64,000 nt of DNA from Escherichia coli (GTDB taxonomy: Bacteria > Pseudomonadota > Gammaproteobacteria > Enterobacterales > Enterobacteriaceae). Both the position numbers and the translations under genes were made by a program. Shown here piece after piece: positions 26,014 to 46,236 of this stretch; the stretch's first letter is position 1; every line of letters begins with the position of its first letter. The stretch is taken from the NCBI RefSeq assembly GCF_013315695.1, contig NZ_CP054353.1; one strand, given 5' to 3'. Below the pieces are notes generated by a model, which searched no databases, was not told the origin of the DNA, and saw only the letters and a program-made list of their open reading frames with translations.

Positions 26014-26523
26014 GTGGCTACGCAGACTGAAGTTGCCAGGCATTTAAGTCTGACCGATCGCCAGCTTCGCAGATTGCAGAAATTGCCGGGTGCCCCGATA
26101 TCGAATAAGCGAGGGCAACTGGATCTGGATGCCTGGCGCGATTTTTACATATCGTATCTGAGAAGAAGTAAAAACGATGTGCCTGATGGCGATAGCGAAG
26201 ACGACTATGAGGAGAAATTGCTTATTGCCAGATGGGAACTGACAGCAGAACAGGCTGTTACACAGCAGTTAAAAAATGAGGTGTCAAAAGGAAAACTTAT
26301 TGACACCGGGTTCTGTATTTTTGCCCTCAGCAAGCTGGCAATGGCGTTATCCAGTACGCTTGATTCCATCCCTTTATCCATGCAGCGACAGTTTCCTGAT
26401 TTAACACCGCGCCATCTTGACCATCTGAAAACCCTTATTGCGAAGGGGGCAAATCAGTGTGCGCGGGCGGGGGATAAATTACCGGATTTACTCGATGAAT
26501 ATATCAGAGCAACAACTGAATAA
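26014..26523 (+). CDS. nu1: Terminase small subunit, Nu1-like
   Basis: GTG start; C-terminal half TGFCIFALSKLAMALSSTLDSIPLSMQRQFPDLTPRHLDHL... resembles lambda Nu1. Confidence 0.8.
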   Translation: MATQTEVARHLSLTDRQLRRLQKLPGAPISNKRGQLDLDAWRDFYISYLRRSKNDVPDGDSEDDYEEKLLIARWELTAEQAVTQQLKNEVSKGKLIDTGFCIFALSKLAMALSSTLDSIPLSMQRQFPDLTPRHLDHLKTLIAKGANQCARAGDKLPDLLDEYIRATTE

Positions 26524-28412
26524 TATGATGAGTGCTGTCACAACAGCATTACAGCCCCTGATAAGGGCATTGCCGGTGACGCCAGTTGAATGGGCTGATC
26601 AAAATTATTATCTGCCTAAAGAATCTTCATATGGTGAGGGAGAATGGAAAACGCTGCCGTTCCAGATCGCCATCATGAACAGCATGGGGAATGATCAGAT
26701 CCGGACTGTTAATCTGATTAAATCTGCCCGTGTTGGCTATACAAAGATGTTGCTGGGGGTGGTCGGGTATTTTATTGAGCATAAATCCCGAAACAGTCTG
26801 CTTTTTCAGCCCACGGATTCTGCCGCTGAAGATTTTATGAAGTCTCACGTGGAGGCGACGATTCGGGATGTGCCATGTCTGAAAGACCTTTCTCCATGGC
26901 TGGGGCGTAAACATCGTGACAATACTCTCACGCTGAAACGCTTTTCATCGGGTGTGGGCTTCTGGTGCCTGGGCGGCGCTGCCGCCAAAAACTACCGTGA
27001 AAAATCCGTGGACGTGGTCTGCTATGACGAACTTTCCTCGTTCGAACCGGATGTCGAAAAAGAGGGTTCGCCAACCCTGCTTGGGGATAAACGTATTGAG
27101 GGCTCTGTATGGCCCAAATCCATTCGCGGCTCGACGCCTAAAATCAAAGGCACCTGCCAGATCGAAAAAGCGGCCAACGAGTCGGCGCATTTCATGCGTT
27201 TTTATGTGCCCTGCCCGCACTGTGGGGAGGCGCAGTATCTGAAATTTGGCGATGAGTCCACGCCTTTTGGCCTTAAATGGGAGAAGGACAGCCCCGAAAG
27301 CGTTTTCTACCTCTGTGAACATCATGGCTGCGTGATCCATCAGTCTGAGCTTGACCAGAGCAACGGGCGGTGGATCTGTGAAAACACGGGGATGTGGACC
27401 CGCGACGGTCTGACGTTTTTCAGCGCTGCGGATAATGAAATTCCGCCGCCGCGCTCCATCACATTCCATATCTGGACGGCGTACAGTCCGTTCACCACCT
27501 GGGTACAGATTGTCTATGACTGGCTGGATGCACTGAAAGATCCCAACGGCCTGAAAACCTTTGTGAACACCACGCTGGGCGAGACCTGGGAAGAGGCCGT
27601 GGGCGAAAAACTCGATCACCAGGTGCTGATGGATAAGGTTGTGCGTTACACGGCTGCGGTGCCTTCCCGGGTGGTTTATCTGACGGCGGGCATTGACTCG
27701 CAGCGAAACCGTTTTGAGATGTATGTCTGGGGATGGGCTCCGGGAGAGGAAGCCTTTCTGGTGGATAAAATCATCATTATGGGGCGTCCCGATGAGGAAG
27801 AGACGCTGTTACGTGTGGATGTGGCGATCAACAAAAAATACCGCCATGCAGACGGAACCGAAATGACCATTTCCCGTGTCTGCTGGGACACCGGGGGGAA
27901 TTGTCTATCAGAGGTCAAAAAAACACGGTGTTTTCCGGGTGCTGCCGGTAAAAGGTGCATCTGTTTATGGCAAGCCGGTGATCACCATGCCAAAAACCCG
28001 CAATCAGCGGGGCGTGTATCTGTGCGAAGTGGGGACGGACACCGCAAAAGAAATTCTCTATGCCCGTATGAAAGCCGATCCCACGCCTGCGGATGAAGCC
28101 ACGTCGTATGCCATCCGTTTTCCTGATGATCCGGAGATTTTTTCGCAGACAGAGGCGCAGCAACTGGTGGCGGAAGAGCTTGTGGAGAAGTGGGAAAAAG
28201 GAAAGATGCGTCTGCTGTGGGATAACAAAAAGCGGCGTAACGAAGCGCTGGACTGCCTGGTGTATGCCTACGCGGCATTACGTGTGTCCGTGCAACGCTG
28301 GCAGCTTGATCTGGCTGTACTGGCAAAATCCCGGGAAGAAGAGACGACCCGGCCAACCCTTAAAGAACTGGCAGCGAAGCTGTCCGGAGGAGTGAATGGT
28401 TACAGTCGCTGA
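26495..28412 (+). pseudogene. A: Terminase large subunit gpA, interrupted by a +1 frameshift near 27893-27900
   Basis: N-terminal 466 aa (MNISEQQLNN...ISRVCWDTGG) and C-terminal 170 aa (...IVYQRSKKHGVFRVLPVKGASVYGKP...) both lambda-gpA-like but in different frames; junction at ccggggggaattg. Confidence 0.6.
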
Positions 28413-28602
28413 ACTGCAGGCGCTGCGTCAGGCGCGCCTTGATTTATTAACCGGTAAACGGGTGGTGTCTGTCCAGAAAGATGGTCGCAGAATTGAATAT
28501 ACGGCAGCTTCTCTGGATGAGCTTAACCGGGCGATCAATGATGCGGAGTCGGTACTGGGGACAACCCGCCGTCGCCGTCGTCCGCTGGGAGTGAGGTTAT
28601 GA
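28396..28602 (+). CDS. W: Head-tail joining protein gpW
   Basis: MVTVAELQALRQARLDLLTGKRVVSVQKDGRRIEYTAASLDEL..., lambda-W-like. Confidence 0.85.
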   Translation: MVTVAELQALRQARLDLLTGKRVVSVQKDGRRIEYTAASLDELNRAINDAESVLGTTRRRRRPLGVRL

Positions 28603-30191
28603 AACGAACGCCTGTCCTGATTGATGTGAACGGCGTTCCGCTTCGGGAGAGCCTCAGCTACAACGGTGGCGGTGCAGGATTTGGCGGGCAAATGGCAGAG
28701 TGGTTGCCACCCTCGCAGAGTGCCGATGCGGCCCTGCTGCCCGCGTTGCGTCTGGGGAATGCCCGTGCAGATGATCTGGTGCGCAATAACGGAATAGCGG
28801 CCAATGCGGTGGCCCTGCATAAGGATCACATTGTCGGGCATATGTTTCTGATCAGTTACCGTCCGAACTGGCGCTGGCTGGGGATGCGGGAGACCGCGGC
28901 AAAAAGTTTTGTCGATGAGGTGGAGGCGGCCTGGTCAGAATACGCAGAAGGGATGTTTGGTGAGATCGACATGGAAGGGAAACGCACGTTCACGGAATTT
29001 ATCCGTGAAGGTGTGGGCGTTCATGCGTTTAACGGCGAAATCTTTGTGCAGCCGGTCTGGGATACGGAGAGCACGCAACTGTTTCGTACGCGTTTTAAAG
29101 CCGTGAGTCCGAAACGGGTGGACACGCCAGGACACGGTATGGGGAACCGTTTTCTGCGGGCCGGTGTGGAGGTCGATCGATATGGTCGTGCCGTTGCGTA
29201 CCATATCTGTGAGGATGATTTTCCTCGCTCCGGGAGTGGACGATGGGAACGGATCCCGCGTGAACTTCCCACCGGGCGTCCGGCCATGCTGCATATTTTC
29301 GAGCCGGTGGAGGACGGGCAGACCCGTGGGGCCAATCAGTTTTACAGCGTAATGGAACGGCTGAAGATGCTCGATTCCCTGCAGGCAACACAGCTTCAGT
29401 CGGCCATAGTGAAGGCGATGTATGCAGCGACGATTGAAAGTGAACTTGATACCGAAAAGGCCTTTGAATATATCGCCGGTGCGCCGCAGGGGCAGAAGGA
29501 TAATCCGCTTATTAATATTCTGGAGAAGTTCTCCACCTGGTATGACACGAATAGCGTGACGCTGGGCGGTGTCAAAATTCCGCACCTTTTCCCCGGTGAT
29601 GATCTGAAACTTCAGACCGCGCAGGATTCAGACAATGGATTTTCGGCGCTTGAACAGGCGCTGCTGCGGTATATCGCCGCCGGTCTTGGCGTTTCCTACG
29701 AACAGTTGTCCCGTGATTACTCGAAGGTCAGTTATTCAAGTGCCCGCGCATCCGCCAATGAGTCGTGGCGCTATTTTATGGGGCGGCGAAAATTTATTGC
29801 GTCCCGGCTGGCCACGCAGATGTTTTCCTGCTGGCTGGAAGAGGCACTTCTTCGGGGGATTATTCGTCCGCCACGGGCGCGTTTTGATTTTTATCAGGCG
29901 CGATCAGCCTGGTCACGGGCTGAGTGGATTGGAGCCGGAAGAATGGCCATTGACGGGCTCAAGGAGGTTCAGGAATCAGTGATGCGCATTGAGGCCGGAC
30001 TGAGCACGTATGAGAAAGAGCTGGCGCTGATGGGCGAGGATTATCAGGACATTTTCCGCCAGCAGGTCAGGGAATCTGCAGAGCGGGAAAAAGCCGGACT
30101 CTCACGTCCGGTGTGGATAGCGCAGGCGTATCAGCAGCAGATAGCGGAGAGTCGCAGGCCGGAAGAGGAGACAACACCACGTGAGACGTAA
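28599..30191 (+). CDS. B: Portal protein gpB
   Basis: 530 aa, lambda-B-like; start overlaps the W stop. Confidence 0.9.
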   Translation: MKRTPVLIDVNGVPLRESLSYNGGGAGFGGQMAEWLPPSQSADAALLPALRLGNARADDLVRNNGIAANAVALHKDHIVGHMFLISYRPNWRWLGMRETAAKSFVDEVEAAWSEYAEGMFGEIDMEGKRTFTEFIREGVGVHAFNGEIFVQPVWDTESTQLFRTRFKAVSPKRVDTPGHGMGNRFLRAGVEVDRYGRAVAYHICEDDFPRSGSGRWERIPRELPTGRPAMLHIFEPVEDGQTRGANQFYSVMERLKMLDSLQATQLQSAIVKAMYAATIESELDTEKAFEYIAGAPQGQKDNPLINILEKFSTWYDTNSVTLGGVKIPHLFPGDDLKLQTAQDSDNGFSALEQALLRYIAAGLGVSYEQLSRDYSKVSYSSARASANESWRYFMGRRKFIASRLATQMFSCWLEEALLRGIIRPPRARFDFYQARSAWSRAEWIGAGRMAIDGLKEVQESVMRIEAGLSTYEKELALMGEDYQDIFRQQVRESAEREKAGLSRPVWIAQAYQQQIAESRRPEEETTPRET

Positions 30192-31686
30192 TCTTTCACA
30201 CATTATTGCCGCAGCATTCAATGAACCGCTGCTTCTGGAGCCCGCCTATGCGCGGGTTTTCTTTTGCGCGCTCGGGCGCGAGATGGGGGCAGCAAGTCTT
30301 TCGGTACCGCAACAGCAGGTACAGCTTGATGCTCCCGGGATGCTGGCTGAAACGGACGAGTACATGGCCGGAGGTAAACGACCGGCCCGTGTTTACCGGG
30401 TGGTGAACGGTATTGCGGTACTGCCGGTGACCGGCACGCTGGTGCACCGGCTGGGGGGGATGCGGCCATTTTCCGGAATGACTGGCTATGACGGCATTGT
30501 CGCCTGTCTTCAGCAGGCAATGGCAGATAGCCAGGTGCGGGGCATACTGCTGGACATTGACAGTCCGGGCGGGCAGGCCGCCGGCGCGTTTGACTGCGCT
30601 GACATGATTTACCGCCTCCGGCAGCAGAAGCCGGTCTGGGCACTGTGTAATGACACGGCCTGTTCTGCAGCCATGCTGCTGGCGTCGGCCTGCTCCCGAC
30701 GGCTGGTTACCCAGACATCCCGTATCGGCTCCATTGGCGTGATGATGAGCCATGTCAGCTATGCCGGTCATCTGGCGCAGGCCGGTGTGGATATCACGCT
30801 GATTTACTCAGGAGCGCACAAGGTGGATGGCAATCAGTTTGAAGCGTTGCCGGCAGAGGTTCGCCAGGACATGCAGCAGCGGATTGATGCGGCGCGCCGG
30901 ATGTTTGCCGAAAAAGTGGCGATGTATACCGGTCTGTCTGTTGATGCGGTCACGGGAACAGAGGCTGCCGTTTTTGAAGGTCAGTCCGGCATTGAGGCCG
31001 GGCTGGCGGATGAATTAATCAATGCGTCGGATGCCATCAGTGTGATGGCCACGGCGCTGAACAGTAATGTCAGAGGAGGCACTATGCCGCAATTAACTGC
31101 AACGGAAGCCGCCGTGCAGGAGAACCAGCGAGTGATGGGGATCCTGACATGCCAGGAAGCGAAAGGACGTGAACAGCTTGCCACGATGCTGGCAGGGCAA
31201 CAGGGCATGAGCGTTGAACAGGCCCGGGCGATTCTGGCCGCGGCGGCACCGCAGCAGCCGGTGGCATCCGCACAGAGTGAAGCCGATCGCATTATGGCGT
31301 GTGAAGAAGCGAACGGTCGTGAACAACTGGCGGCAACGCTGGCGGCGATGCCGGAGATGACGGTGGAAAAAGCCCGCCCGATCCTGGCTGCTTCACCGCA
31401 GGCGAATGCCGGACCATCACTCCGTGATCAGATCATGGCACTGGATGAGGCAAAAGGGGCTGAGGCGCAGGCTGAACAGCTGGCTGCCTGCCCGGGAATG
31501 ACTGTGGAGAGCGCCCGGGCTGTGCTGGCTGCGGGATCAGGTAAGGCAGAACCGGTCTCTGCATCCACAACCGCCCTGTTTGAACATTTCATGGCGAACC
31601 ATTCACCGGCTGCGGTCCAGGGGGGCGTGTCACAGGCGTCAGAAGACGGTGATGCGGACGTGAAAATGCTCATGGCCATGCCATGA
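30181..31686 (+). CDS. C: Head protease/scaffold gpC-like (S49-type peptidase N-domain plus repeat-containing C-terminal region)
   Basis: GTG start overlapping the B stop; three tandem ~40-aa repeats in the C-terminal half. Confidence 0.8.
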   Translation: MRRNLSHIIAAAFNEPLLLEPAYARVFFCALGREMGAASLSVPQQQVQLDAPGMLAETDEYMAGGKRPARVYRVVNGIAVLPVTGTLVHRLGGMRPFSGMTGYDGIVACLQQAMADSQVRGILLDIDSPGGQAAGAFDCADMIYRLRQQKPVWALCNDTACSAAMLLASACSRRLVTQTSRIGSIGVMMSHVSYAGHLAQAGVDITLIYSGAHKVDGNQFEALPAEVRQDMQQRIDAARRMFAEKVAMYTGLSVDAVTGTEAAVFEGQSGIEAGLADELINASDAISVMATALNSNVRGGTMPQLTATEAAVQENQRVMGILTCQEAKGREQLATMLAGQQGMSVEQARAILAAAAPQQPVASAQSEADRIMACEEANGREQLAATLAAMPEMTVEKARPILAASPQANAGPSLRDQIMALDEAKGAEAQAEQLAACPGMTVESARAVLAAGSGKAEPVSASTTALFEHFMANHSPAAVQGGVSQASEDGDADVKMLMAMP

Positions 31687-31722
31687 AGTCAGTGCTGAAC
31701 ATCAATACGAGGTTTTTACAAT

Positions 31723-32070
31723 ATGGTGACGAAAACCATCACTGAACAGCGTGCGGAAGTACGTATTTTTGCCGGTAATGATCCGGCTCACACCGCCACA
31801 GGCAGCAGCGGGATTTCCTCGGCAACACCGGCACTGACACCCCTGATGCTGGATGGGGCCACCGGGAAACTGGTGGTCTGGGACGGACAGAAAGCCGGTA
31901 GTGCGGTTGGCATACTGGTACTGCCGCTTGAAGGCACAGAGGAGGTGCTGACCTATTACAAGTCGGGGACCTTTGCGACGGAGGCAATCCGCTGGCCTGA
32001 AAGTGTGGATGAACACAAAAAGGCCAACGCCTTTACCGGCAGTGCCCTGAGTCACGCGGCGCTGCCGTAA
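31723..32070 (+). CDS. D: Head decoration protein gpD
   Basis: ...NDPAHTATGSSGISSATPALTPLMLDGATGKLVVWDG...YYKSGTF..., lambda-D-like. Confidence 0.85.
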   Translation: MVTKTITEQRAEVRIFAGNDPAHTATGSSGISSATPALTPLMLDGATGKLVVWDGQKAGSAVGILVLPLEGTEEVLTYYKSGTFATEAIRWPESVDEHKKANAFTGSALSHAALP

Positions 32071-32127
32071 CACGTTATCAGGCCACCGCGTTGGCCTGAC
32101 TGATTTCTTAATGAAAGGAACTGATTT

Positions 32128-33156
32128 ATGGGATTGTTTACGACCCGCCAGTTACTCGGTTATACCGAACAAAAAGTTAAATTCCGTGCGCTGTTTCTGG
32201 AGCTGTTTTTCCGCCGTACGGTGAATTTCCACACCGAAGAGGTGATGCTGGACAAAATTACCGGAAAAACGCCGGTGGCGGCCTATGTCTCCCCGATCGT
32301 TGAAGGAAAAGTGCTTCGCCATCGCGGTGGTGAAACCCGCGTGTTACGTCCGGGCTACGTCAAGCCCAAACACGAATTTAATTACCAGCAGGCGGTTGAG
32401 CGCCTTCCTGGTGAAGATCCGGCTCAGCTGAACGACCCGGCCTACCGTCGTCTGCGTATCATTACCGATAACCTCAAACAGGAAGAGCACGCCATTGTCC
32501 AGGTGGAAGAAATGCAGGCGGTGAATGCCGTGCTGTATGGCAAATACACCATGGAAGGGGATCAGTTTGATACTGTCGAGGTGGATTTCGGGCGCTCTGA
32601 AGGAAATAACATTGAGCAGGCTGACGGTAAAAAATGGTCTGAGCAGGACCGTGATACGTTTGATCCGACGCATGATATTGACCTCTACTGCGATCAGGCC
32701 AGCGGCCTTGTGAATATCGCCATTATGGACGGTACGGTCTGGCGTCTGCTGAATGGCTTTAAGCTGTTCCGCGAAAAACTGGATACCCGTCGCGGCTCAA
32801 ATTCACAACTCGAAACGGCAGTGAAAGACCTGGGGGCGGTGGTGTCCTTCAAGGGGTATTACGGCGATCTGGCCATTGTGGTGGCGAAAACGTCTTATGT
32901 GGCAGAAGACGGTACCGAAAAACGTTATCTGCCGGAGGGCACACTGGTCCTGGGGAATACGGCAGCAGAGGGCATTCGTTGCTATGGTGCCATTCAGGAT
33001 GCGCAGGCGTTGTCCGAAGGTGTGGTGGCCTCTTCCCGTTATCCGAAACACTGGCTGACTGTGGGCGATCCGGCCCGTGAATTCACCATGACGCAGTCCG
33101 CACCGCTGATGGTGCTGCCGGATCCGGATGAGTTTGTGGTGGTACAGGTGAAATAA
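32128..33156 (+). CDS. E: Major capsid protein gpE
   Basis: 342 aa, closely lambda-E-like (...RIEGSVWPK-type motifs, C-terminal GDPAREFTMTQSAPLMVLPDPDEFVVVQV). Confidence 0.9.
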   Translation: MGLFTTRQLLGYTEQKVKFRALFLELFFRRTVNFHTEEVMLDKITGKTPVAAYVSPIVEGKVLRHRGGETRVLRPGYVKPKHEFNYQQAVERLPGEDPAQLNDPAYRRLRIITDNLKQEEHAIVQVEEMQAVNAVLYGKYTMEGDQFDTVEVDFGRSEGNNIEQADGKKWSEQDRDTFDPTHDIDLYCDQASGLVNIAIMDGTVWRLLNGFKLFREKLDTRRGSNSQLETAVKDLGAVVSFKGYYGDLAIVVAKTSYVAEDGTEKRYLPEGTLVLGNTAAEGIRCYGAIQDAQALSEGVVASSRYPKHWLTVGDPAREFTMTQSAPLMVLPDPDEFVVVQVK

Positions 33157-33207
33157 TCCGTGAGCGGGGGCGAAATGCCCCCGTGTCTTTTTTCACAGGA
33201 GGCTGAG

Positions 33208-33591
33208 ATGGCAACAAAAGAAGAAAATCTGAATCGTCTTCGTCAACTGGCTGGCCTGCTGGGGCGCGAGGCGGATATGTCGGGGAGTGCTGCGGATATT
33301 GCTCAACGTGTGTCTGAGTGGGAAGAGGAGCTTGCTGTTTCCCCGGAGGGCATTATGCACTCTGATGAGAGCGGGGCTGATCAAAATCACACAGACGATG
33401 GTGAGCAGTTGCACAACACTGATGCTCCGGATGATGTTAAAGCGGTCCGTGTGCGGAAATGCCTGCATGTGATGGGGTATTGCCCGGAGACAGGCCGTCC
33501 CGTTGAACTGACGTACCGGGGCATGCGTGTTATGGTGCCATCACCACTGGCGACAGCCATGATACAGCACGGAACGGCTGAGCATGCGTGA
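33208..33591 (+). CDS. FI: DNA-packaging protein FI-like
   Basis: RBS AGGAGG 6 nt before ATG (MATKEENLNRLRQLAG...); position between E and FII. Confidence 0.65.
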   Translation: MATKEENLNRLRQLAGLLGREADMSGSAADIAQRVSEWEEELAVSPEGIMHSDESGADQNHTDDGEQLHNTDAPDDVKAVRVRKCLHVMGYCPETGRPVELTYRGMRVMVPSPLATAMIQHGTAEHA

Positions 33592-33937
33592 TTTTCAGAA
33601 TGCCTTTGATGCTGCCCTCGCCGGGGTGGACAGTACGATCGTTGAAGTGATGGGGATCCGTGCGCAGTTCACCTCCGGAGCACAACGTGGCGGCGAAGTT
33701 CAGGGGGTTTTTGACGATCCGGAGTCGCTGGGTTTTGCCGGTGGCGGGGTCCGTATTGAAGGAAGCAGCCCGTCATTATTTGTGCGGACGGATACGGTGC
33801 GTGCCGTGCGGCGTGGTGACACGCTGACCATTAACGGCGAGATGTTCTGGGTGGATCGTGTTTCTCCGGATGACGGGGGAAGCTGTTATCTCTGGCTCAA
33901 CCGTGGGCAACCACCCGCTGTTAACCGGCGACGATAA
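33584..33937 (+). CDS. FII: Head-tail connector gpFII
   Basis: MRDFQNAFDAALAGVDS...WVDRVSPDDGGSCYLWLNRGQPPAVNRRR, lambda-FII-like. Confidence 0.85.
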   Translation: MRDFQNAFDAALAGVDSTIVEVMGIRAQFTSGAQRGGEVQGVFDDPESLGFAGGGVRIEGSSPSLFVRTDTVRAVRRGDTLTINGEMFWVDRVSPDDGGSCYLWLNRGQPPAVNRRR

Positions 33938-33952
33938 ACGCAGGGTGAAATT

Positions 33953-34528
33953 ATGGCGATAAAAGGGCTTGATCAGGCGATTGATAATCTGAGCCGGGTT
34001 CGTAAAAACGCCATTCCGGCGGCTTCAGCAATGACGATTAACCGCGTGGCCACAACGGCGATTAATCAGTCTTCATCACAGGTTGCCCGGGAGACAAAGG
34101 TACGCCGGAAACTGGTTAAGGAACGGTCCAGACTGAAACGGGCCACGGTCAGAAATCCGAATGCAAAAATTATCGTTAACCGCGGTGATCTCCCTGTGAT
34201 TAAGCTGGGGATCAGAATGCTGGGGCGTCGTCCGGACAGCATACTCAAAGCCGGTCAGCATCGTTATCAGCGGGCATTTATCCAGCGATTAAATAATGGG
34301 CGCTGGCATGTTATGCAACGTCTTCCCCAGGCCAGATATGAGGAGGGCAATGACGACAAGGGAAGGAAAAAGCGTAATCGCCTTCCCATTCAGGTGGTGA
34401 AAATCCCGATGGCGGCCCCACTGAAACAGGCATTTGATGAGAATGTTGACCGTATCCGGCGTGAACGCCTGCCTAAAGAACTGGCATACGCGCTGAAACA
34501 ACAACTGAGGATTGCGATAAAACGATGA
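33953..34528 (+). CDS. Z: Tail completion protein gpZ
   Basis: MAIKGLDQAIDNLSRVRKNAIPAASAMTINRVATTAINQSSSQVARETKVRRKLVKER..., lambda-Z-like. Confidence 0.85.
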   Translation: MAIKGLDQAIDNLSRVRKNAIPAASAMTINRVATTAINQSSSQVARETKVRRKLVKERSRLKRATVRNPNAKIIVNRGDLPVIKLGIRMLGRRPDSILKAGQHRYQRAFIQRLNNGRWHVMQRLPQARYEEGNDDKGRKKRNRLPIQVVKIPMAAPLKQAFDENVDRIRRERLPKELAYALKQQLRIAIKR

Positions 34529-34920
34529 AACACACTGACATTCGTGCCGCAGTGCTGGATGCACTCGAGCAGCATGAACACGGGGCGACGCTGTTTGATG
34601 GTCGCCCCGTTGTTTTTGACGAAGAGGATTTTCCTGCGATCGCGGTTTATCTGACGGATGCAGAGTATACCGGTGAAGAGCTGGATGCAGATACCTGGCG
34701 GGCCACGCTGCATATTGAGGTGTTTTTACCGGCACAGGTACCGGATTCAGAGCTTGATCAGTGGATGGAAAGCCGGATTTACCCGGCGATGACCGCGATC
34801 CCGGCACTGGCAGGACTGATTACCACGATGGTTACGCAGGGCTATGAGTATCGTCGTGATGACGATATGGCGTTATGGAGTTCTGCAGATCTGACTTATT
34901 CCATTACATACGAGATGTGA
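34525..34920 (+). CDS. U: Tail terminator gpU
   Basis: [54 protein letters not shown]..., lambda-U-like. Confidence 0.9.
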
Positions 34921-34927
34921 GGACGAT

Positions 34928-35674
34928 ATGGCAACACCAAATCCCCTTGAGCCGGTAAAAGGTGCCGGTACCACTCTGTGGGTTTACAACGGCAAGGCTG
35001 ATGCTTACGCAAACCCGTTGTCAGACGATGGCTGGCAGCGACTGGCTAAGGTGAAGGATCTGACGCCGGGCGAGATGACGGCTGAACCCTACGATGATAA
35101 CTACCTGGATGATGAAGACGCGGACTGGACCGCGACCGGGCAGGGACAGAAATCTGCAGGTGATACCAGTTTTACGCTGGCCTGGAAACCGGGAGAGGAA
35201 GGCCAGAAAGGGCTTATAGGCTGGTTTGAAAGCGGCGATGTCCGGGCCTATAAAATCCGTTTTCCGAATGGCACGGTGGATGTGTTTCGTGGCTGGGTCA
35301 GCAGTATCGGTAAGGCCGTGACGGCGAAAGAAGTGATCACCCGCACGGTGAAAGTCACTAACGTGGGTAAACCTTCTGTAGCGGAAGAACGCAGCAAAAT
35401 TACGCCGGTCACTGCGATTAAGGTAACGCCGACAGGTACGGTTGAAAAAGGGAAAACAACCACCCTGACCGTTACTGTGGAACCGGAAAATGCAACGGAT
35501 AAGACATTCAGGGCGATTTCCGCCGATCCATCAAAAGCCACCATTAGCGTGAAAGATATGACGATTACTGTGACGGGGGTTAAGGATGGAAAAGTCAGCA
35601 TCCCTGTGATTTCCGGTAATGGTCAGTTTGCTGCGGTGGCTGAAATTACCGTTAATAATGTGCCGGGTGGCTAA
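34928..35674 (+). CDS. V: Major tail protein gpV
   Basis: ...[76 protein letters not shown]..., lambda-V-like. Confidence 0.9.
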
Positions 35675-35692
35675 AGAGCTGAGAGATAAGCG

Positions 35693-36124
35693 ATGTTCCT
35701 GAAAACAGAACAATTTGAATATAACGGTGTATCCGTCACGCTTTCTGAGCTGTCTGCGCTGCAGCGTATTGAGCATCTTGCCCTCCTGAAACGGCGGGCA
35801 GAAGAGGCTGAAGCCAGCGGCAACCTGCAGGTGAGTGTGGAAGATCTTGTCAGAACCGGCGCGTTTCTGGTGGCGATGTCCCTGTGGCATAACCATCCAC
35901 AGAAAACGCAGTCACCGTCAATGAATGAGGCCGTGATGAAGATAGAGCAGGAAGTGCTCACCACCTGGCCTGCCGATGCCATTGCCCGGGCGGAAGACGT
36001 GGTGTTGTGCCTGTCCGGGATGATCGAAGCTGTTCGTCCGGATACTGATATTACTGAAGTGGCGAAAAATAACACGCTGACTGATGATGATTTTTCTGCG
36101 GGAAAGTCTTCGACGGCGAGCTGA
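35693..36124 (+). CDS. G: Tail assembly chaperone gpG
   Basis: MFLKTEQFEYNGVSVTLSELSALQRIEHLALLKRRAEEAEASG..., lambda-G-like. Confidence 0.9.
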   Translation: MFLKTEQFEYNGVSVTLSELSALQRIEHLALLKRRAEEAEASGNLQVSVEDLVRTGAFLVAMSLWHNHPQKTQSPSMNEAVMKIEQEVLTTWPADAIARAEDVVLCLSGMIEAVRPDTDITEVAKNNTLTDDDFSAGKSSTAS

Positions 36125-36564
36125 ACTTTGCCCTCAGACTGGCGCGTGAGATGGGGAGACCCGACTGGCGCGCCATGCTTGCCGGGATGACATCCACCGA
36201 ATATGCCGACTGGCACCGTTTTTACCGCACGCATTATTTTCAGGATACCCAGCTGGATATGCATTTTTCCGGGCTGACGTACGCTGTACTCAGCCTGTTT
36301 TTTTGCGATCCGGATATGCATCCCTCTGATTTCAGTCTGCTTGTCCCCCGGCATGAGGAAGAGCAGGTGGAGAGGCCGGATGAGGACAAAATGCTGATGC
36401 AGAAAGCGGCAGGACTTGCCGGAGGCGTCCGGTTCGGTGGGGACGGAGGGCGCGATATTTTATCGTCTGCGGATGTGGCGGATGTCATGGTGGATGATGC
36501 CGCATTAATGATGGCTTCAGCGGGGATTCCGGGAGGTGTGAGATATGTCCCAGCCGGTTGGTGA
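35693..36564 (+). CDS. GT: Tail assembly chaperone G-T fusion by programmed -1 frameshift at 36100-36106
   Basis: Slippery heptamer G GGA AAG at 36100-36106; the -1 frame is open from 36106 to 36564. Confidence 0.75.
36100..36106 (+). promoter_or_regulatory. Programmed -1 ribosomal frameshift slippery site (G GGA AAG)
   Basis: Same heptamer as the lambda G/GT site, 18 nt before the G stop. Confidence 0.75.
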
Positions 36565-39118
36565 TCTTGTTATTGACCTTAGTCTGGATGCTGTCCGTTT
36601 CGATGAGCAGATGAGCCGGGTAAGGCGTCATTTTTCAGGTCTGGATACCGACGCCAGAAAAACCGCCAGTGCTGTTGAACAGGGCCTGAGCCGCCAGGCG
36701 CTGGCTGCACAAAAAGCAGGGATTTCCGTCGGGCAGTATAAAGCGGCCATGCGAACCCTGCCCGCACAGTTTACGGATATCGCCACGCAGCTTGCCGGTG
36801 GTCAGAATCCCTGGCTGATCCTGCTGCAACAGGGCGGTCAGGTGAAGGACTCCTTCGGCGGGATGATCCCCATGTTCAGGGGGCTTGCCGGTGCGATCAC
36901 CCTGCCGATGGTCGGGGTCACCTCGCTGGCGGTGGCGACAGGTGCGCTGGTGTACGCCTGGTACCAGGGAGATTCCACGCTTTCAGCGTTTAATAAAACT
37001 CTGGTTCTTTCCGGTAATCAGTCCGGACTGACTGCCGATCGTATGCTGACTCTCTCAAGAGCCGGGCAGGCAGCAGGGCTGACGTTTAACCAGGCGAGAG
37101 AGTCACTGGCAGCCCTGGTGAATGCCGGTGTGCGTGGTGGTGAACAGTTTGATGCCATCAACCAGAGTGTCGCGCGTTTTGCGTCTGCATCCGGTGTGGA
37201 GGTGGATAAAGTCGCTGAAGCCTTCGGGAAGCTGACCACTGACCCGACGTCGGGACTGATGGCGATGGCGCGCCAGTTCCGTAACGTGACGGCAGAGCAG
37301 ATTGCGTATGTTGCACAGCTGCAGCGTTCCGGAGACGAGGCCGGGGCATTGCAGGCGGCGAACGATATCGCCACGAAAGGCTTTGATGAGCAGACCCGTC
37401 GCCTGAAAGAAAACATGGGAACACTGGAGACCTGGGCGGATAAAACAGGGAAGGCATTCAAATCGATGTGGGATGCCATTCTGGATATCGGTCGTCCGGA
37501 ATCCTCAGCGGATATGCTCGCCAGTGCGCAGAAGGCATTTGATGAGGCGGATAAAAAATGGCAGTGGTACCAGAGCCGGAGCCAGCGCCGGGGAAAGACC
37601 TCCTCTTTTCGTGCGAACCTTCAGGGGGCATGGGATGACCGGGAAAATGCCCGTCTGGGTCTGGCAGCGGCCACGCTGCAGTCGGATATGGAAAAAGCCG
37701 GTGAACTGGCGGCAAGGGACCGGGCTGAGCGTGAGGCGTCACAGCTGAAGTATACCGGAGAGGCGCAGAAGGCGTATGAGCGCCTGCAGACGCCGCTGGA
37801 TAAATATACCGCCCGTCAGAAAGAGCTGAATAAGGCCCTGAAAGACGGAAAAATCCTGCAGGCGGATTACAACACGCTGATGGCGTCGGCAAAAAAGGAT
37901 TATGAATCGACGCTGAAAAAGCCGTCAGGTGTGAAGGTGTCTGCCGGTGAGCGCCAGGAAGACCGGGCGCATGCAGCCATGCTGGCGCTTGAAACCGAGC
38001 TCAGGACGCTGGAAAAACACAGCGGTGTGAATGAGAAAATCAGCCAGCAGCGCCGGGATTTATGGGAAGCGGAAAATCAGTATGTGGTCCTGAAAGAGGC
38101 CGCCACGAAACGGCAGTTATCTGAGCAGGAAAAATCCCTGCTGGCCCATGAGAAAGAAACGCTGGAGTACAAACGCCAGCTGGCTGAGCTGGGCGACAAG
38201 ATAGAACACCAGAAGCGGCTGAATGAGCTGGCACAGCAGGCGGCGCGGTTTGAACAGCAGCAGAGCGCGAAGCAGGCGGCAATCAGCGCAAAAGCCCGCG
38301 GCCTCACTGACCGTCAGGCGCAGCGGGAGTCGGAAGAGCAGCGCCTTCGTGAGGTGTACGGTGATAATCCGGCTGCGCTGGCGAAGGCCACATCGGCACT
38401 GAAGAACACCTGGTCTGCGGAGGAGCAGCTTCGTGGAAGCTGGATGGCCGGGATGAAGTCCGGCTGGGGCGAGTGGGCGGAAAGTGCGACGGACAGTTTT
38501 TCGCAGGTTAAAAACGCGGCCACGCAGACCTTTGACGGTATTGCACAGAATATGGCGGCGATGCTGACCGGCAGTGAGCAGAACTGGCGTGGTTTCACCC
38601 GTTCCGTGCTCTCCATGCTGACAGAGATTTTTCTGAAGCAGGCAATGGTGGGGATTGTCGGAAGTATCGGCAGCGCCATTGGCGGGGCTGTTGGTGGTGG
38701 CGCATCCGCGTCAGGCGGTACAGCCATTCAGGCTGCGGCGGCGAACTTCCATTTTGCGACCGGAGGATTTACGGGAACCGGCGGCAAATATGAGCCAGCG
38801 GGGATTGTTCACCGTGGTGAATTTGTCTTCACGAAGGAGGCAACCAGCCGGATTGGTGTCGGCAACCTGTATCGTCTGATGCGCGGGTATGCGGAAGGTG
38901 GTTATGTCGGCGGTGCCGGAAGTCCGGCGCAGATGCGGCGGGCGGAAGGTATCCGGTTTGAGCAGAACAACAGCGTGGTGATTCAGAACGACGGTATCAA
39001 CGGACAGGCCGGGCCGCAGCTGATGAAAGCGGTGTATGAGATGGCCCGTAAAGGTGCGCAGGATGAGATTCAGGCGCAGATGCGTGATGGCGGCGTATTT
39101 TCCGGAGGCAGGCGATGA
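36545..39118 (+). CDS. H: Tail tape-measure protein gpH
   Basis: 857 aa, coiled-coil-rich, lambda-H-like in order and length. Confidence 0.9.
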   Translation: MSQPVGDLVIDLSLDAVRFDEQMSRVRRHFSGLDTDARKTASAVEQGLSRQALAAQKAGISVGQYKAAMRTLPAQFTDIATQLAGGQNPWLILLQQGGQVKDSFGGMIPMFRGLAGAITLPMVGVTSLAVATGALVYAWYQGDSTLSAFNKTLVLSGNQSGLTADRMLTLSRAGQAAGLTFNQARESLAALVNAGVRGGEQFDAINQSVARFASASGVEVDKVAEAFGKLTTDPTSGLMAMARQFRNVTAEQIAYVAQLQRSGDEAGALQAANDIATKGFDEQTRRLKENMGTLETWADKTGKAFKSMWDAILDIGRPESSADMLASAQKAFDEADKKWQWYQSRSQRRGKTSSFRANLQGAWDDRENARLGLAAATLQSDMEKAGELAARDRAEREASQLKYTGEAQKAYERLQTPLDKYTARQKELNKALKDGKILQADYNTLMASAKKDYESTLKKPSGVKVSAGERQEDRAHAAMLALETELRTLEKHSGVNEKISQQRRDLWEAENQYVVLKEAATKRQLSEQEKSLLAHEKETLEYKRQLAELGDKIEHQKRLNELAQQAARFEQQQSAKQAAISAKARGLTDRQAQRESEEQRLREVYGDNPAALAKATSALKNTWSAEEQLRGSWMAGMKSGWGEWAESATDSFSQVKNAATQTFDGIAQNMAAMLTGSEQNWRGFTRSVLSMLTEIFLKQAMVGIVGSIGSAIGGAVGGGASASGGTAIQAAAANFHFATGGFTGTGGKYEPAGIVHRGEFVFTKEATSRIGVGNLYRLMRGYAEGGYVGGAGSPAQMRRAEGIRFEQNNSVVIQNDGINGQAGPQLMKAVYEMARKGAQDEIQAQMRDGGVFSGGRR

Positions 39119-39444
39119 AAACCTTTCGCTGGAAAGTGAAACCGGATATGGAGGTGAACTCGCAGCCATCGGTGCGTGAAGTGCGTTTTGGTGACGGGTA
39201 CTCACAGCGTATGGCGGCAGGGCTGAATGCTGACCTGAAAACATACAGGGTGACGCTTTCCGTGACCCGGGAGGAGGCCCGGCATCTGGAAGCGTTCCTG
39301 GCAGAGCACGGTGGCTGGAAGGCATTTTTGTGGAAGCCACCCTATGCATACCGGCAGATAAAGGTGACCTGTGCCGGGTGGTCTGCGCGGGTCGGGATGT
39401 TGCGCGTTGAGTTCAGCGCGGAGTTTAAGCAGGTGGTGAACTGA
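39115..39444 (+). CDS. M: Minor tail protein gpM
   Basis: MKTFRWKVKPDMEVNSQPSVREVRFGDGYSQRMAAGLNADLKTYRVTLSV..., lambda-M-like. Confidence 0.9.
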   Translation: MKTFRWKVKPDMEVNSQPSVREVRFGDGYSQRMAAGLNADLKTYRVTLSVTREEARHLEAFLAEHGGWKAFLWKPPYAYRQIKVTCAGWSARVGMLRVEFSAEFKQVVN

Positions 39445-40142
39445 TGCAGGATATTCGCGAAGAAAGTCTGAACGAGTCGGTTAAGTCAGAGCAGTCACCG
39501 CGGGTGGTACTCTGGGAAATCGACCTGACGGTACAGGGTGGTGAGCGGTATTTTTTCTGTAATGAGCTGAATGAAAAAGGGGAGCCGGTCACCTGGCAGG
39601 GGCGTAAGTATGAGGCATACCCGATTGACGGCAGCGGCTTTGAGATGAACGGCCGGGGCAGCAGTGCCAGACCGTCGCTGACGGTGTCCAATCTGTTCGG
39701 TCTGGTCACCGGGATGGCGGAAGACCTGCAGAGTCTGGTGGGGGCCACGGTGGTCCGCCGCCGGGTGTATGCCCGTTTTCTGGATGCGGTGAATTTCGTT
39801 GCGGGCAATCCGGAGGCGGACCCGGAGCAGGAGCTGAGTGACCGCTGGGTGGTGGAGCAGATGTCGCAGCTGACAGCCATGACGGCCTCGTTTGTGCTGG
39901 CCACACCGACCGAGACGGACGGGGCGCTGTTTCCCGGTCGCATCATGCTGGCGAACACCTGTATGTGGGATTACCGGGGAGATGAATGCGGGTATAACGG
40001 TCCTGCGGTGGCGGATGAGTTCGACAACCCCACCACGGATATCCGTAAGGACAGATGCAGCAAGTGCATGCGCGGGTGTGAGATGCGCGGCATGGTGGCT
40101 AATTTTGGCGGTTTCCTTTCCATTAACAAACTTTCGCAGTAA
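39444..40142 (+). CDS. L: Minor tail protein gpL
   Basis: MQDIREESLNESVKSEQSPRVVLWEIDLTVQGGERYFFCNELNEKGEPVTWQGRKYEAYPIDGSGFEMNG..., lambda-L-like. Confidence 0.9.
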   Translation: MQDIREESLNESVKSEQSPRVVLWEIDLTVQGGERYFFCNELNEKGEPVTWQGRKYEAYPIDGSGFEMNGRGSSARPSLTVSNLFGLVTGMAEDLQSLVGATVVRRRVYARFLDAVNFVAGNPEADPEQELSDRWVVEQMSQLTAMTASFVLATPTETDGALFPGRIMLANTCMWDYRGDECGYNGPAVADEFDNPTTDIRKDRCSKCMRGCEMRGMVANFGGFLSINKLSQ

Positions 40143-40147
40143 ATCCA

Positions 40148-40891
40148 ATGACACAGACAGAATCAGCGATTCTGGCGCATGCCCGGCGGTGTGTGCCTGC
40201 GGAGTCGTGCGGCTTAGTGGTGAGAACGCCGGAGGGGGAGCGGTATATCCCTTGTGTGAATATCTCTGCAGAGCCGGAGGCGTATTTTCGTATTGCACCG
40301 GAAGACTGGCTGCGGGCAGAGATGCAGGGGGAGATTGTGGCACTGGTCCACAGTCATCCCGGTGGGCTGCCCTGGCTGAGCGAGGCTGACCGGCGGCTGC
40401 AGATAAAAAGCGCACTGCCCTGGTGGCTGGTCTGCCGGGGTGACATTCACAAATTCCGCTGCGTGCCGCACCTGACGGGACGGCGCTTTGAGCACGGGGT
40501 GACGGACTGTTACACCCTGTTCCGGGATGCATACCATCTGGCGGGGACTGAAATGCCGGATTTTCATCGCGAGGATGACTGGTGGCGCAACGGTCAGAAC
40601 CTTTACCTGGACAATATGGCGGTCACCGGCTTTTACCGGGTGCCCCTGTCCTCTGCACAGGCGGGCGATATTCTGCTGTGCTGCTTTGGTGCTTCGGTAC
40701 CGAACCATGCCGCCATTTACTGCGGCAACGGTGAGCTGCTTCACCATCTGCCTGAACAACTGAGTAAACGGGAGAGGTATTCCGAAAAATGGCAACGACG
40801 AACGCATTCTGTCTGGCGTCACCGCCACTGGCACGCATCTGCCTTCACGGGGATTTGCAACGATTTGGCCGCCGCCTCAGCCTGTATGTGA
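40148..40891 (+). CDS. K: Tail assembly protein gpK (NlpC/P60 plus JAB/MPN-like); 3' extent uncertain because the frame runs into gpI
   Basis: MTQTESAILAHARRCVPAESCGLVVRTPEGERYIPCVNIS...HSHPGG; overlaps I by 103 nt. Confidence 0.8.
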   Translation: MTQTESAILAHARRCVPAESCGLVVRTPEGERYIPCVNISAEPEAYFRIAPEDWLRAEMQGEIVALVHSHPGGLPWLSEADRRLQIKSALPWWLVCRGDIHKFRCVPHLTGRRFEHGVTDCYTLFRDAYHLAGTEMPDFHREDDWWRNGQNLYLDNMAVTGFYRVPLSSAQAGDILLCCFGASVPNHAAIYCGNGELLHHLPEQLSKRERYSEKWQRRTHSVWRHRHWHASAFTGICNDLAAASACM

Positions 40892-41469
40892 ACACGGCAG
40901 CGGAAGCCATTCGCGCCCTGTCGATGCAGATGCCGGGCTTTCGCCGTCAGATGAACGAAGGCTGGTACCAGATACGTATTGCCGGTGATGACACGGCACC
41001 GGAGGCGGTGTATGCCCGTCTTCACGAACAGCTGGGTGAGGGAACGGTCATCCACATTGTGCCGCGACTGGCCGGGGCCGGAAAGGGTGGACTGCAGATT
41101 GTGCTGGGGGCGGCAGCCATCGTGGGCTCTTTCTTCACGGCCGGAGGCTCGATGGCGTTATGGGGTACAGCCCTGAGTGCCGGTGGTTTTTCTGCCACCA
41201 CGATGCTGTTTTCACTGGGTGCCAGCATGATACTGGGCGGAGTGGCCCAGATGCTGGCCCCGAAGGCAAAAACACCGGATTACCGCGCAACGGATAACGG
41301 CAGACAGAACACGTACTTTTCCTCGCTGGATAACATGATTGCCCAGGGGAACCCGATGCCGGTGCCTTACGGGGAAATGCTGGTTGGCTCCCGCCGTATA
41401 TCCCAGGACATCAGCACCCGTGATGAAGGCGGGGGCGGAAAGGTCGTGGTTATCGGGCGGCAGGGGTAA
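40789..41469 (+). CDS. I: Tail assembly protein gpI
   Basis: MATTNAFCLASPPLARICLHGDLQRFGRRLSLYVNTAAEAIRALSMQMPGFRRQ..., lambda-I-like. Confidence 0.85.
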   Translation: MATTNAFCLASPPLARICLHGDLQRFGRRLSLYVNTAAEAIRALSMQMPGFRRQMNEGWYQIRIAGDDTAPEAVYARLHEQLGEGTVIHIVPRLAGAGKGGLQIVLGAAAIVGSFFTAGGSMALWGTALSAGGFSATTMLFSLGASMILGGVAQMLAPKAKTPDYRATDNGRQNTYFSSLDNMIAQGNPMPVPYGEMLVGSRRISQDISTRDEGGGGKVVVIGRQG

Positions 41470-41474
41470 AAAGA

Positions 41475-41573
41475 ATAAAAAAATCCCGCAGTGATCGCGG
41501 ACAGGAACTGCGGGAGAGTTACGAAGATTAAGTGTAAGGAATTATTCTTATATCACGACAAAAAAATTAACGC
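41475..41573 (-). ncRNA. Candidate small RNA between I and J (promoter to intrinsic terminator, about 100 nt, no ORF)
   Basis: Reverse-strand TTCACA, 16 nt, TATAAT (41580-41607) then AU-rich transcript ending in hairpin CCCGCAG...CTGCGGG plus U7 (41471-41514). Confidence 0.45.
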
Positions 41574-41579
41574 AGAGAA

Positions 41580-41607
41580 ATTATACGCGCCACAGTCAGT
41601 TTGTGAA
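41580..41607 (-). promoter_or_regulatory. Near-consensus sigma70 promoter on the reverse strand in the I-J spacer
   Basis: -35 TTCACA (41607-41602), 16-nt spacer, -10 TATAAT (41585-41580). Confidence 0.45.
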
Positions 41608-41680
41608 AATGTGAAGATATTCAGAATTTTTATGCCATTACCGGTTTTAACCAACAGGATTATCGGTGGGCATGAAAGAA

Positions 41681-41715
41681 AACCCCGGTATCTGCTGATA
41701 CCGGGGTTTCTCTTT
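41681..41715 (+). terminator. Intrinsic terminator-like hairpin upstream of J
   Basis: ccccggtatc / gataccgggg stem then tttctcttt. Confidence 0.5.
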
Positions 41716-41812
41716 AGCATGGCAGAAATGTGTTTCATGCTTTTCGGGCGAAGGATATCCGACTTCTGTACGGAATGGCAAGTGGCGGTTAATTTATTCA
41801 GGGGAAGGCTGT

Positions 41813-44800
41813 ATGGGAAAAGGTGGCGGTAAGGCACACACGCCTCGTGAGGCGAAGGATAATCTCAAATCCACGCAGATGATGAGTGTGATTGATGCGA
41901 TTGGTGAGGGACCGATAGAAGGTCCGGTGAAGGGACTGCAGAGTATTCTGGTGAACAAAACCCCGCTGACGGACACGGACGGTAATCCCGTGATACACGG
42001 TGTGACTGCGGTCTGGCGTGCCGGGGAGCAGGAGCAGACACCACCGGAAGGCTTTGAGTCCTCCGGAGCTGAAACCGGACTGGGCGTGGAAGTGACGAAG
42101 GCAAAACCGGTGACGCGCACCATTACGTCCGCGAACATTGACCGCCTGCGGGTTACCTTCGGGGTGCAGTCACTGGTGCAGACCACGTCAAAGGGCGACC
42201 GTAATCCTTCCTCTGTCCGGATTCTGATTCAGTTACAGCGTAATGGCCGCTGGGTGACGGAAAAGGATGTCACCATTAACGGCAAGACCACCTCGCAGTT
42301 CCTGGCCTCGGTGATTCTGGATAATCTGCCTCCCCGGCCCTTTAACATCCGGATGGTCAGGGAGACGGCGGACAGCACCACGGACCAGCTGCAGAATAAG
42401 ACGCTGTGGTCGTCATACACCGAAATCATCGATGTGAAACAGTGCTACCCGAACACGGCCATTGTGGGGCTGCAGGTGGATGCGGAGCAGTTCGGCGGCC
42501 AGCAGATGACGGTGAACTACCATATCCGCGGTCGCATCATCCAGGTGCCGTCAAACTATGACCCGGAAAAACGCACGTACAGTGGTATCTGGGACGGCAG
42601 CCTGAAACCGGCATACAGCAACAACCCGGCCTGGTGTCTGTGGGACATGCTGACTCACCCGCGCTACGGCATGGGAAAACGTCTGGGGGCGGCGGATGTG
42701 GACAAGTGGGCGCTGTATGCCATCGGGCAGTACTGCGACCAGACGGTCCCGGATGGTTTCGGGGGGACCGAGCCGCGGATGACCTTTAATGCGTACCTGG
42801 CACAACAGCGTAAGGCGTGGGACGTTCTCAGTGATTTCTGCTCTGCGATGCGCTGTATGCCGGTATGGAACGGCCAGACGCTGACGTTCGTTCAGGACCG
42901 TCCGTCGGATGTGGTGTGGCCGTACACCAACAGCGATGTGGTGGTGGATGATAACGGCGTGGGTTTCCGCTACAGCTCCAGTGCCCTGAAGGACCGGCAC
43001 ACGGCAGTGGAGGTGAATTACACCGACCCGCAGAACGGCTGGCAGACCTCCACGGAACTGGTGGAAGACCCGGAAGCCATACTGCGCTACGGACGCAACC
43101 TGCTGAAGATGGACGCGTTCGGCTGTACCAGCCGCGGTCAGGCCCACCGTGCCGGGCTGTGGGTGATAAAGACCGAACTGCTGGAAACGCAGACGGTGGA
43201 TTTCACGCTTGGGTCACAGGGGCTGCGTCACACACCCGGTGACATCATTGAAATCTGTGATAACGACTATGCCGGGACCATGACCGGCGGACGTGTCCTG
43301 TCCATCGATGCCGCCAGCCGTACCCTGACGCTGGACCGGGAGGTGACACTGCCGGAGACCGGCACGGCCACTGTTAATCTGATTAACGGCAGCGGTAAGC
43401 CGGCGAGCGTGGCCATCACCGCACACCCCGCGCCTGACCGGATACAGGTCAGCACCCTGCCGGATGGTGTGGAGACATACGGTGTGTGGGGACTCTCCCT
43501 GCCGTCACTGCGTCGTCGCCTGTTCCGCTGTGTCTCCATCCGGGAAAACACGGACGGCACCTTTGCCATCACGGCGGTGCAGCACGTACCTGAAAAAGAA
43601 GCCATCGTGGATAACGGGGCCCGCTTTGAGCCGCAGTCAGGCACCCTGAACAGCGTTATCCCACCGGCAGTGCAGCACCTGACGGTGGAGGTGAGCGCAG
43701 CTGACGGCCAGTATCTGGCGCAGGCTAAATGGGACACGCCGCGGGTGGTGAAGGGCGTGCGCTTCAGTCTGCGCCTGACCAGTGGTAAGGGAACGGATGC
43801 CAGACTGGTGACCACCGCCATCACCGCAGACACGGAGCACCGTTTCAGCGGCCTGCCACTGGGGGAATACACCCTGACGGTGCGGGCCATTAACAGCTAC
43901 GGCCAGCAGGGCGAACCTGCGACCACCACCTTCCGGATTAACGCGCCTGCAAAACCCGCCACCATTGAGCTGACGCCGGGGTATTTTCAGATAACGGCGG
44001 TACCGGTGCTGGCGGTGTATGACCCGACGGTGCAGTTTGAATTCTGGTTCTCAGAAAAACGCATCACGAACACGGCACAGGTGGAAAAATCTGCCCGTTA
44101 TCTGGGGACCGGCAGTCAGTGGACTGTCCAGGGGAGCCGGATTAAGCCGGGGACGGATTTCTGGTTTTACGTGCGAAGCGTCAACCTGGTGGGAAAATCT
44201 GCTTTTGTGGAAGCCAGCGGGCAGCCCAGCAATGATGGTGAAGGGTATCTGGAAATTTTCCGGGGGCTGATAGATGAGACGCTTCTGGGGCAGGCACTGA
44301 AAGAGCGCATTGATGCTTCAGCGCTGCGTACGGAGGTCACGCAACTGGAAGAAGATATCCGTCAGCGGATGGACACGGATATCGCAGAAGTGACCCGGAA
44401 AATCGGGAAGGCGGAAAACAGCCTCACGCAGCTGGTTGCGAAAAAGAATGAGGACCAGACACTGGCCATCGCGCAGGTGAGCCAGAAAGTGGACCGGGTG
44501 AGCAGTGAAATCTCACAGACTGTCAGCCAGGGGCAGTCAGAAAACGCCCGACAGATAGCACAGGTCCGCCAGTACGTGGATAAAAAAGGGAGTGAAATTA
44601 CCTCGACCACGGATAAAAAGCTGGGTGACCAGGCCGTGACCATACAGCAAATCCAGCGGGTTCAGTCAGACACGCGCAATGAGCTGAATGCCATGTATAT
44701 GCTGAAGGTGCAGAAAACAAAAAACGGTATTCCCTATGTGGCCGGGATTGGCGCGGGGATTGAGGATGTTGATGGTCAGACCCTGAGTAACATTCTGCTG

Positions 44801-45505: not shown

Positions 45506-45572
45506 ATTTTATAACCCCAATACGGGCGCCAGAAATGGCGCCTTTTTTATTGCAGAAAAGCGAGAGGTAATT

Positions 45573-46172: not shown

Positions 46173-46198
46173 TTAGCCAGGTAACACAGTGTTATGAC

Positions 46199-46226
46199 AG
46201 CCCGCCGGTTCAGGCGGGCTTTTTTG
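46199..46226 (+). terminator. Intrinsic terminator after lom
   Basis: agcccgcc ggttcag gcgggct followed by tttttt. Confidence 0.75.
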
Positions 46227-46236
46227 TGGAGTGGAT

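Follow-up and report, generated by a model that had tools for sequence, protein, structure and literature searches.

The closest described counterparts of the large terminase gene (terL) examined here are lambda A and phage 21 gene 2, which are the same gene and stand, as in the DNA analysed here, in the order cos, terS, terL, W, portal. Loss of the last five residues of lambda gpA, in the Aam42 mutant, abolishes prohead docking and leaves the phage packaging-defective, a defect that is rescued in trans by A+ (PMC4856287). Prophage Sp4 of O157 Sakai, which has no intact terminase, is nevertheless still packaged, and the authors of that study credit the terminase of Sp14, which would act at a near-identical cos (Asadulghani et al. 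2009, PMC2669165).

Here we describe a gpA-type terL gene whose reading frame is broken, in a prophage lying within a stretch of 64,000 nucleotides of Escherichia coli DNA (contig NZ_CP054353.1, assembly GCF_013315695.1), the whole of which is referred to below as the window. Comparison with intact relatives traces the break to an 11-bp deletion, rather than to the single additional base proposed in an initial annotation of the same DNA, and this deletion is probably real.

Boundaries and gene content of the prophage

The element is a lambdoid prophage of ~47.5 kb, inserted at tRNA-Ser(CGA) between mtfA and zinT on the E. coli chromosome. Its landmarks outside terL are listed here.

1747..1836, + strand: tRNA-Ser(CGA), the integration target (ARAGORN); positions 1812-1836 are the att core on the attL side
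1889..2914, - strand: tyrosine integrase, whose 341 aa match the integrase in phage record ON470580 along their whole length with 100% identity
25819..25830, + strand: cosN, GGGCGGCGACCT, aligning to bases 1-12 of phage 21 (annotated as a cohesive end) and followed by a cosB-like region up to terS
26014..26523, + strand: terS (Nu1 homologue), small terminase subunit, 169 aa, intact, 100% identical to WP_000235436.1
28396-28602, + strand: W (tblastn with MSB1_4I proteins)
28599-30191, + strand: portal (tblastn with MSB1_4I proteins)
28396..48872, + strand: head and tail genes, all intact; MSB1_4I proteins match each at full length and in one frame, with 94-100% identity
49262..49286, + strand: att core repeat on the attR side, at the right prophage end; an exact second copy of the 3' end of tRNA-Ser

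The 25-nt att core (GGTTCAAATCCCCCTCTCTCCGCCA) occurs exactly twice in the window, with 0 copies expected by chance. To the right of attR lie zinT and then chromosomal sequence, 100% identical to that of strain MSB1_4I, and the interval 50000-64000 (the dcm, hprS, msrP, yedA region) is 100% identical to MSB1_4I and to two other complete genomes. In MSB1_4I this site is occupied by the same prophage, with 99.3-99.6% identity and an intact 642-aa terL, and the region from cosN to terS is identical to that of the MSB1_4I serU prophage.

The gene context of terL in the window is cos, terS, terL, W, portal, and the genes within 28396..48872 comprise W, portal, protease/scaffold, D, E, FI, FII, Z, U, V, G, T, H, M, L, K, I, J, Lom, a tail fibre gene and two small ORFs. 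All 62 other annotated coding sequences (CDS) of the MSB1_4I sister prophage have full-length, single-frame counterparts in the window; compared base by base, the two prophages show the 11-bp deletion as the sole frame-breaking difference in a gene, the remaining indels being intergenic or mutually compensating inside gene L. The initial annotation had described every other head and tail gene as intact, and these full-length, single-frame matches to the sister prophage agree with it. No second inactivating lesion was found in the prophage when all CDS were compared with the sister prophage, and apart from terL the prophage is intact, as far as sequence can show.

The integrase was considered as a possible second lesion, its MSB1_4I equivalent (window 1865-2914, - strand) being marked 'frameshifted' at its extreme 3' end in RefSeq. 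There is no indel between that gene and the window, the translations are 99.4% identical, and the flag probably reflects the variable 3' end next to attL. The candidate was dropped, as the window integrase is identical to a deposited phage integrase and retains at its C-terminus the sequence 'LIYDR', the presumed catalytic-tyrosine motif.

Several further features of the prophage were recorded. A 297-aa ORF at 22000-22893, flanked by the genes for holin and lysozyme, aligns over its entire length with phrog_1085 (function unknown; E=1.5e-189); the RefSeq label 'incomplete YdfR', applied in the sister strain on the basis of the first 112 residues, was set aside because the whole ORF corresponds to phrog_1085. 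Two prophage-borne tRNAs lie at 17368-17618, downstream of the Q antiterminator gene: tRNA-Arg(TCT) and a tRNA with a CAT anticodon, which ARAGORN calls Met and RefSeq, for the sister copy, calls Ile. Cargo or accessory genes at 5714-6087, 14003-14155, 18535-18867, 19113-21089 and 24729-25055 are intact and, named after the annotation of the sister prophage, include ydfD, dicB, hokD and genes for the anti-adapter iraM, a SASA-family carbohydrate esterase and a TonB-family protein. The immunity region (7377-8039) differs from that of the near-identical MSB1_4I prophage, the CI-like repressor (7474-7881, - strand) being 51.5% and Cro 80% identical, a module swap that would confer a different immunity.

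Reading frames of terL

The features of the terL locus are as follows.

26495..28096, + strand: terL 5' fragment, in which 26495-27898 encode 468 native residues and the remainder an out-of-frame stretch of 65 residues ending at a stop (translation)
27893..27898, + strand: G6 run, of wild-type length and not the lesion (G6 is also found in four intact relatives)
27898..27900, + strand: deletion junction, where the 11 bp ATCGATGGCGA are absent relative to all intact alleles (DNA alignment, pairwise differences, protein alignment)
27900..28412, + strand: terL 3' fragment, in the +1 frame, corresponding to residues 473-642 of the intact protein, with the second nuclease half and the C-terminal tail (tblastn, Pfam)

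Translation from the ATG at 26495 proceeds in one frame to ...ISRVCWDTGG, which ends at 27898, and beyond this point the same frame encodes 65 unrelated residues before a stop at 28094-28096, yielding a product of 533 aa. The +1 frame reads ...GGIVYQRSKKHGVFRV... and extends to 28412. When the intact 642-aa MSB1_4I orthologue was aligned to the window by tblastn, residues 1-468 fell in one frame (99.1%) and residues 466-642 in the next (96.6%); the terL homology detected across both frames is far beyond chance. This two-frame split agrees with the initial annotation, which had recognized a gpA-type terL that switches to the +1 frame after ISRVCWDTGG. The same annotation had placed a run of Gs at 27893-27898, a position confirmed in the window, where positions 27880-27905 read ctgctgggacaccggggggaattgtctatc and the G6 run stands in the context ...gacaccggggggaattgtc....

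Nature of the lesion

In a DNA alignment of the site, PhiR12_1, DA33133 and phage 21 read ...ACCGGGGGG ATCGATGGCGA AATTGTC..., and the window reads ...ACCGGGGGG AATTGTC.... The window thus lacks 11 bases directly 3' of the G run, equal to the codons I-D-G-E plus two bases; one A is ambiguous in this placement, so that the missing bases can equally be written as TCGATGGCGAA. Intact alleles (the 612-base type described below) have GGGGGGATCGATGGCGAAATTG at the site. The protein alignment gives the same picture: lambda reads CWDTGG-IDPT-IVYERSKKHG, phage 21 and the intact prophages read CWD(T/I)GG-IDGE-IVYQRSKKHG, and the window reads CWDTGG, a frame change and IVYQRSKKHG, with IDGE (IDPT in lambda) absent from both frames. 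One 11-bp gap was found against five comparators, with no second indel in terL, and the reading frame is uncompensated. The deletion removes codons 469-472 (IDGE) and two further bases and thereby produces the +1 shift; as the alignments are read here, the net shift of +1 is due to an 11-base deletion and not to a 1-base insertion.

The initial annotation had proposed instead that one extra G or A explains the break, and removal of a single base does arithmetically rejoin the two frames. That a single extra base in the G6 run, whether a sequencing miscount or a true +1 insertion, is the lesion is nonetheless scarcely conceivable: G6 is present in the intact relatives PhiR12_1, DA33133, phage 21, MSB1_4I and lambda (DNA and protein alignments), the window is 11 bases shorter than intact relatives rather than one base longer, and neither of its frames encodes IDGE (IDPT in lambda). 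A homopolymer miscount, which had also been suggested, is a poor explanation because the lesion is an 11-bp, non-homopolymer deletion beside G6. Nor can a run of five Gs serve as the intact state, as had been assumed: G5 would give an in-frame protein minus four residues (IDGE), and no intact functional relative with G5 and without IDGE was seen among the aligned relatives.

As for the origin of the deletion, nothing convincing emerged from the aligned junction sequence, which was searched for a mechanism. Microhomology is limited to 1 bp (A), there is no long flanking repeat, and an imperfect GGGGA...GGCGA repeat at the deletion recurs after 10 bases instead of 11. At the start of the deleted piece stands the palindrome ATCGAT, with a ClaI/GATC site. 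An engineered ClaI deletion was judged unlikely, the deletion being asymmetric about the site, and the site, which overlaps GATC, being one that Dam methylation would block.

Since the G6 run lies exactly at the junction, slippage by +1 on GGG GGG A, whether ribosomal or transcriptional, would yield ...WDTGG-IVYQR... in frame, and hence a 638-aa TerL that lacks only IDGE and might support low-level packaging; the last two of the deleted residues do vary, being PT in lambda and GE in phage 21. We regard such recoding as highly improbable. The relatives encode a single 642-aa ORF and none uses a frameshift here, so that a two-frame arrangement is not conserved among them; the junction is unique to the window, as expected of a one-off deletion and not of a conserved recoding site; and, of the deleted residues, I-D is conserved between lambda and phage 21, right after the conserved CWDTGG in the nuclease domain. 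Nor is G6 known to act as an efficient +1 site.

Domain content of the predicted product

With the frame broken by the deletion, the two halves of the gene can be set against an intact homologue, in which Pfam places GpA_ATPase at residues 46-293 and GpA_nuclease at 323-601 (model positions 3-286) on one chain. In the 5' product of the window, the ATPase domain is whole (GpA_ATPase, PF05876, residues 48-293, E=2e-55), and the Walker-A-like motif KSARVGYTK is present in the protein alignment; GpA_nuclease (PF20454) is matched at residues 323-475, covering only model positions 3-159 of 294. The +1-frame fragment covers model positions 158-287 of the same domain, and no single polypeptide encoded by the window terL contains a complete GpA_nuclease. 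According to the Pfam model, the break falls at nuclease position ~159 of 294, in the middle of the GpA nuclease domain.

The C-terminal 170 residues (the prohead/portal-binding end) are encoded only in the shifted frame, and the window product is 174 native residues short, the C-terminal end included. Endonuclease-null mutations of lambda gpA are located also near E586, in the RRNEALDC motif, which presumably lies downstream of the break in the window. The predicted 533-aa product would retain an intact TerS-binding N-terminus and ATPase and the first half of the RNase-H-like nuclease, followed by 65 nonsense residues, and would be without the second nuclease half and without the C-terminal end that docks on the prohead (portal). 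No PDB sequence match to a close terL homologue was found. The locus is best described as a predicted pseudogene of the gpA-type TerL family, not as a functional member of it.

Distribution and age of the allele

With 601 bases spanning the site as query, hits were obtained in ~1,860 E. coli and 19 phage records; among the matches listed, intact homologues align over a span of 612 bases to the 601-base query, and their identity is lowered to 98.2% solely by 11 gap columns. Because identity was at most 98.4% in any record, none of the 5,426 complete E. coli genomes shares the deletion. The 34-nt junction was not found in genome_contigs (GTDB species representatives), viral_contigs (IMG/VR) or metagenome_contigs (JGI), no record of the exact truncated protein was found, and a search of 5.8 billion clusters with the junction and out-of-frame tail as query returned no protein with the WDTGGNCLSEV junction. 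The matches to that query (P0001-P0008) were short terL fragments from other assemblies, with several frameshifts each; their frame changes occur at G6 and A7 runs and are typical of noisy assemblies.

Over the 2.6-kb terS-terL-W block, the deletion and one silent substitution, at a third codon position (27427), are all that distinguish the window from the intact allele of UPEC129 (terL WP_001530580.1), and it is because nothing else separates the two that the lesion is taken to be recent. A shared or inherited allele was rejected, given that the junction is absent from every collection searched; to judge from these comparisons, the lesion is both private and recent.

A mosaic patch around the deletion

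Besides the serU prophage, MSB1_4I has another lambdoid prophage, whose terS, W, FI, FII, Z and U proteins are the same and whose packaging and head modules are nearly identical. A map of mismatches per 500 bp shows the window to be the same as the MSB1_4I serU prophage over 25.0-39.5 kb, with the exception of a patch at ~27.2-28.95 kb. This patch (~27217-28950, ~1.7 kb), which contains the 11-bp deletion, extends from within terL, of which it includes the 3' two thirds, through W into the 5' end of the portal gene; it has 0-1 mismatches per 500 bp with the second MSB1_4I prophage, against ~44 mismatches with the serU prophage. It reflects either gene conversion between co-resident prophages or a consensus that is chimeric.

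A separate mosaic patch was noted at 39500-40500, where tail gene L ends and K begins, with 30-37 mismatches per 500 bp relative to both MSB1_4I prophages; it includes compensating 1-base indels and a 5-bp intergenic indel, and both genes are full length.

Where a module is repeated in sibling prophages, the 11-bp gap might have arisen in assembly or polishing, the cells themselves carrying an intact terL. We consider this unlikely, although several observations would fit it: the allele is a singleton, with no second occurrence in the collections searched; MSB1_4I, the closest complete strain, has two prophages with near-identical packaging and head modules; over ~1.7 kb the terL region carries the allele of the other prophage, and as such is prone to read mis-mapping; and public assemblies do hold error-generated fragments of this terL region. 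Those fragments, however, are multiply frameshifted, unlike the single clean lesion of the window, and the gap comprises 11 bp of non-repetitive sequence, with 1 bp of microhomology and no long flanking repeat that could be skipped. There is no other frame-breaking indel in the 64-kb window, and the 14-kb chromosomal flank is 100% identical to the finished genome of MSB1_4I; with so few indels elsewhere and an identical flank, the consensus therefore looks clean rather than indel-ridden. The reading that we prefer is that terL probably carries a real, recent inactivating deletion of 11 bp, a case of ordinary prophage decay.

Discussion

If the deletion is real, the prophage could, after induction, still excise, replicate, lyse the cell and build proheads and tails. 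Its own terminase, by the predicted domain content, would fail both to complete the cutting of cos and to dock on the portal, so that its own DNA would stay unpackaged and no infectious particles would be formed. Because the nuclease domain is halved, and in the light of lambda genetics, we infer that terL function is lost and packaging blocked, in a manner that would be complementable in trans. An intact terminase of the same specificity, provided for example by a sibling prophage, would lift the packaging block; a sibling could package this DNA in trans because the two types of sibling prophage share an identical cosN and terS and have conserved cosB-like repeats.

A tentative extension, possible in our opinion but rather doubtful, is that the terminase-dead prophage persists as a cos-compatible passenger of a sibling lambdoid prophage with identical terS and near-identical terL, of the kind present in the closest complete strain, its DNA being packaged in trans, and that the ~1.7-kb patch is a footprint of ongoing gene conversion. 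Were this so, the distinct immunity region and the cargo would still be packaged, and exchange between siblings could also repair the lesion.

The case matters chiefly for annotation and for the prediction of phage activity. Most 'intact prophage' predictors would accept this element, yet alone it probably cannot package its DNA, and a check of the site that took five Gs for the intact state would be misleading.

Inactivation of a prophage gene, here in a well-known gene family, is an ordinary phenomenon, and the same gene is broken elsewhere. The terL pseudogene of ExPEC XM (NZ_CP025328, CXG97_RS07840), annotated as 'frameshifted', has its break within a few bases of that in the window; ExPEC XM, the one complete genome with five Gs at the site, retains the 11 bases, whereas the window has G6 and has lost them, and the two lesions are independent events. 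The ExPEC XM frameshift (~3290-3300 of that locus), with G5 in place of G6, is a 1-base homopolymer change of the kind that the initial annotation had envisaged for the window, and the G run may be a minor hotspot of mutation or sequencing error.

Compared with the functional genes of the family, the window is ~96% identical to phage 21 at the DNA level around the junction and ~66-68% identical to lambda gpA at the protein level, and shares with gpA proteins the motifs KSARVGYTK (Walker-A-like), AGIDSQ and CWDTGG, as well as the C-terminal tail. Unlike those of phage 21 and lambda, its frame is broken at residue 468 and no full-length enzyme is encoded. In lambda Aam42, studied by the Feiss laboratory, TerL is C-terminally truncated, as in the window, and the mutant is packaging-dead and recessive to A+ (PMC4856287). 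Aam42 loses 5 residues and remains nicking-competent; the window product loses 174 residues and half of the nuclease, and cos cutting should therefore fail as well. Aam42 is, moreover, a laboratory mutant, whereas the window terL is a natural prophage allele.

A natural parallel is Sp4, likewise an otherwise largely complete lambdoid prophage that has beside it a sibling with a near-identical cos and packaging module, as the prophage of the window has at least in related strains. In Sp4 an IS element interrupts the small-subunit gene nu1, whereas in the window a small deletion affects the large subunit. If the source strain has a sibling of the MSB1_4I type, the window would provide one more natural example of a lambdoid prophage that is defective yet open to rescue in trans, as in O157 Sakai.
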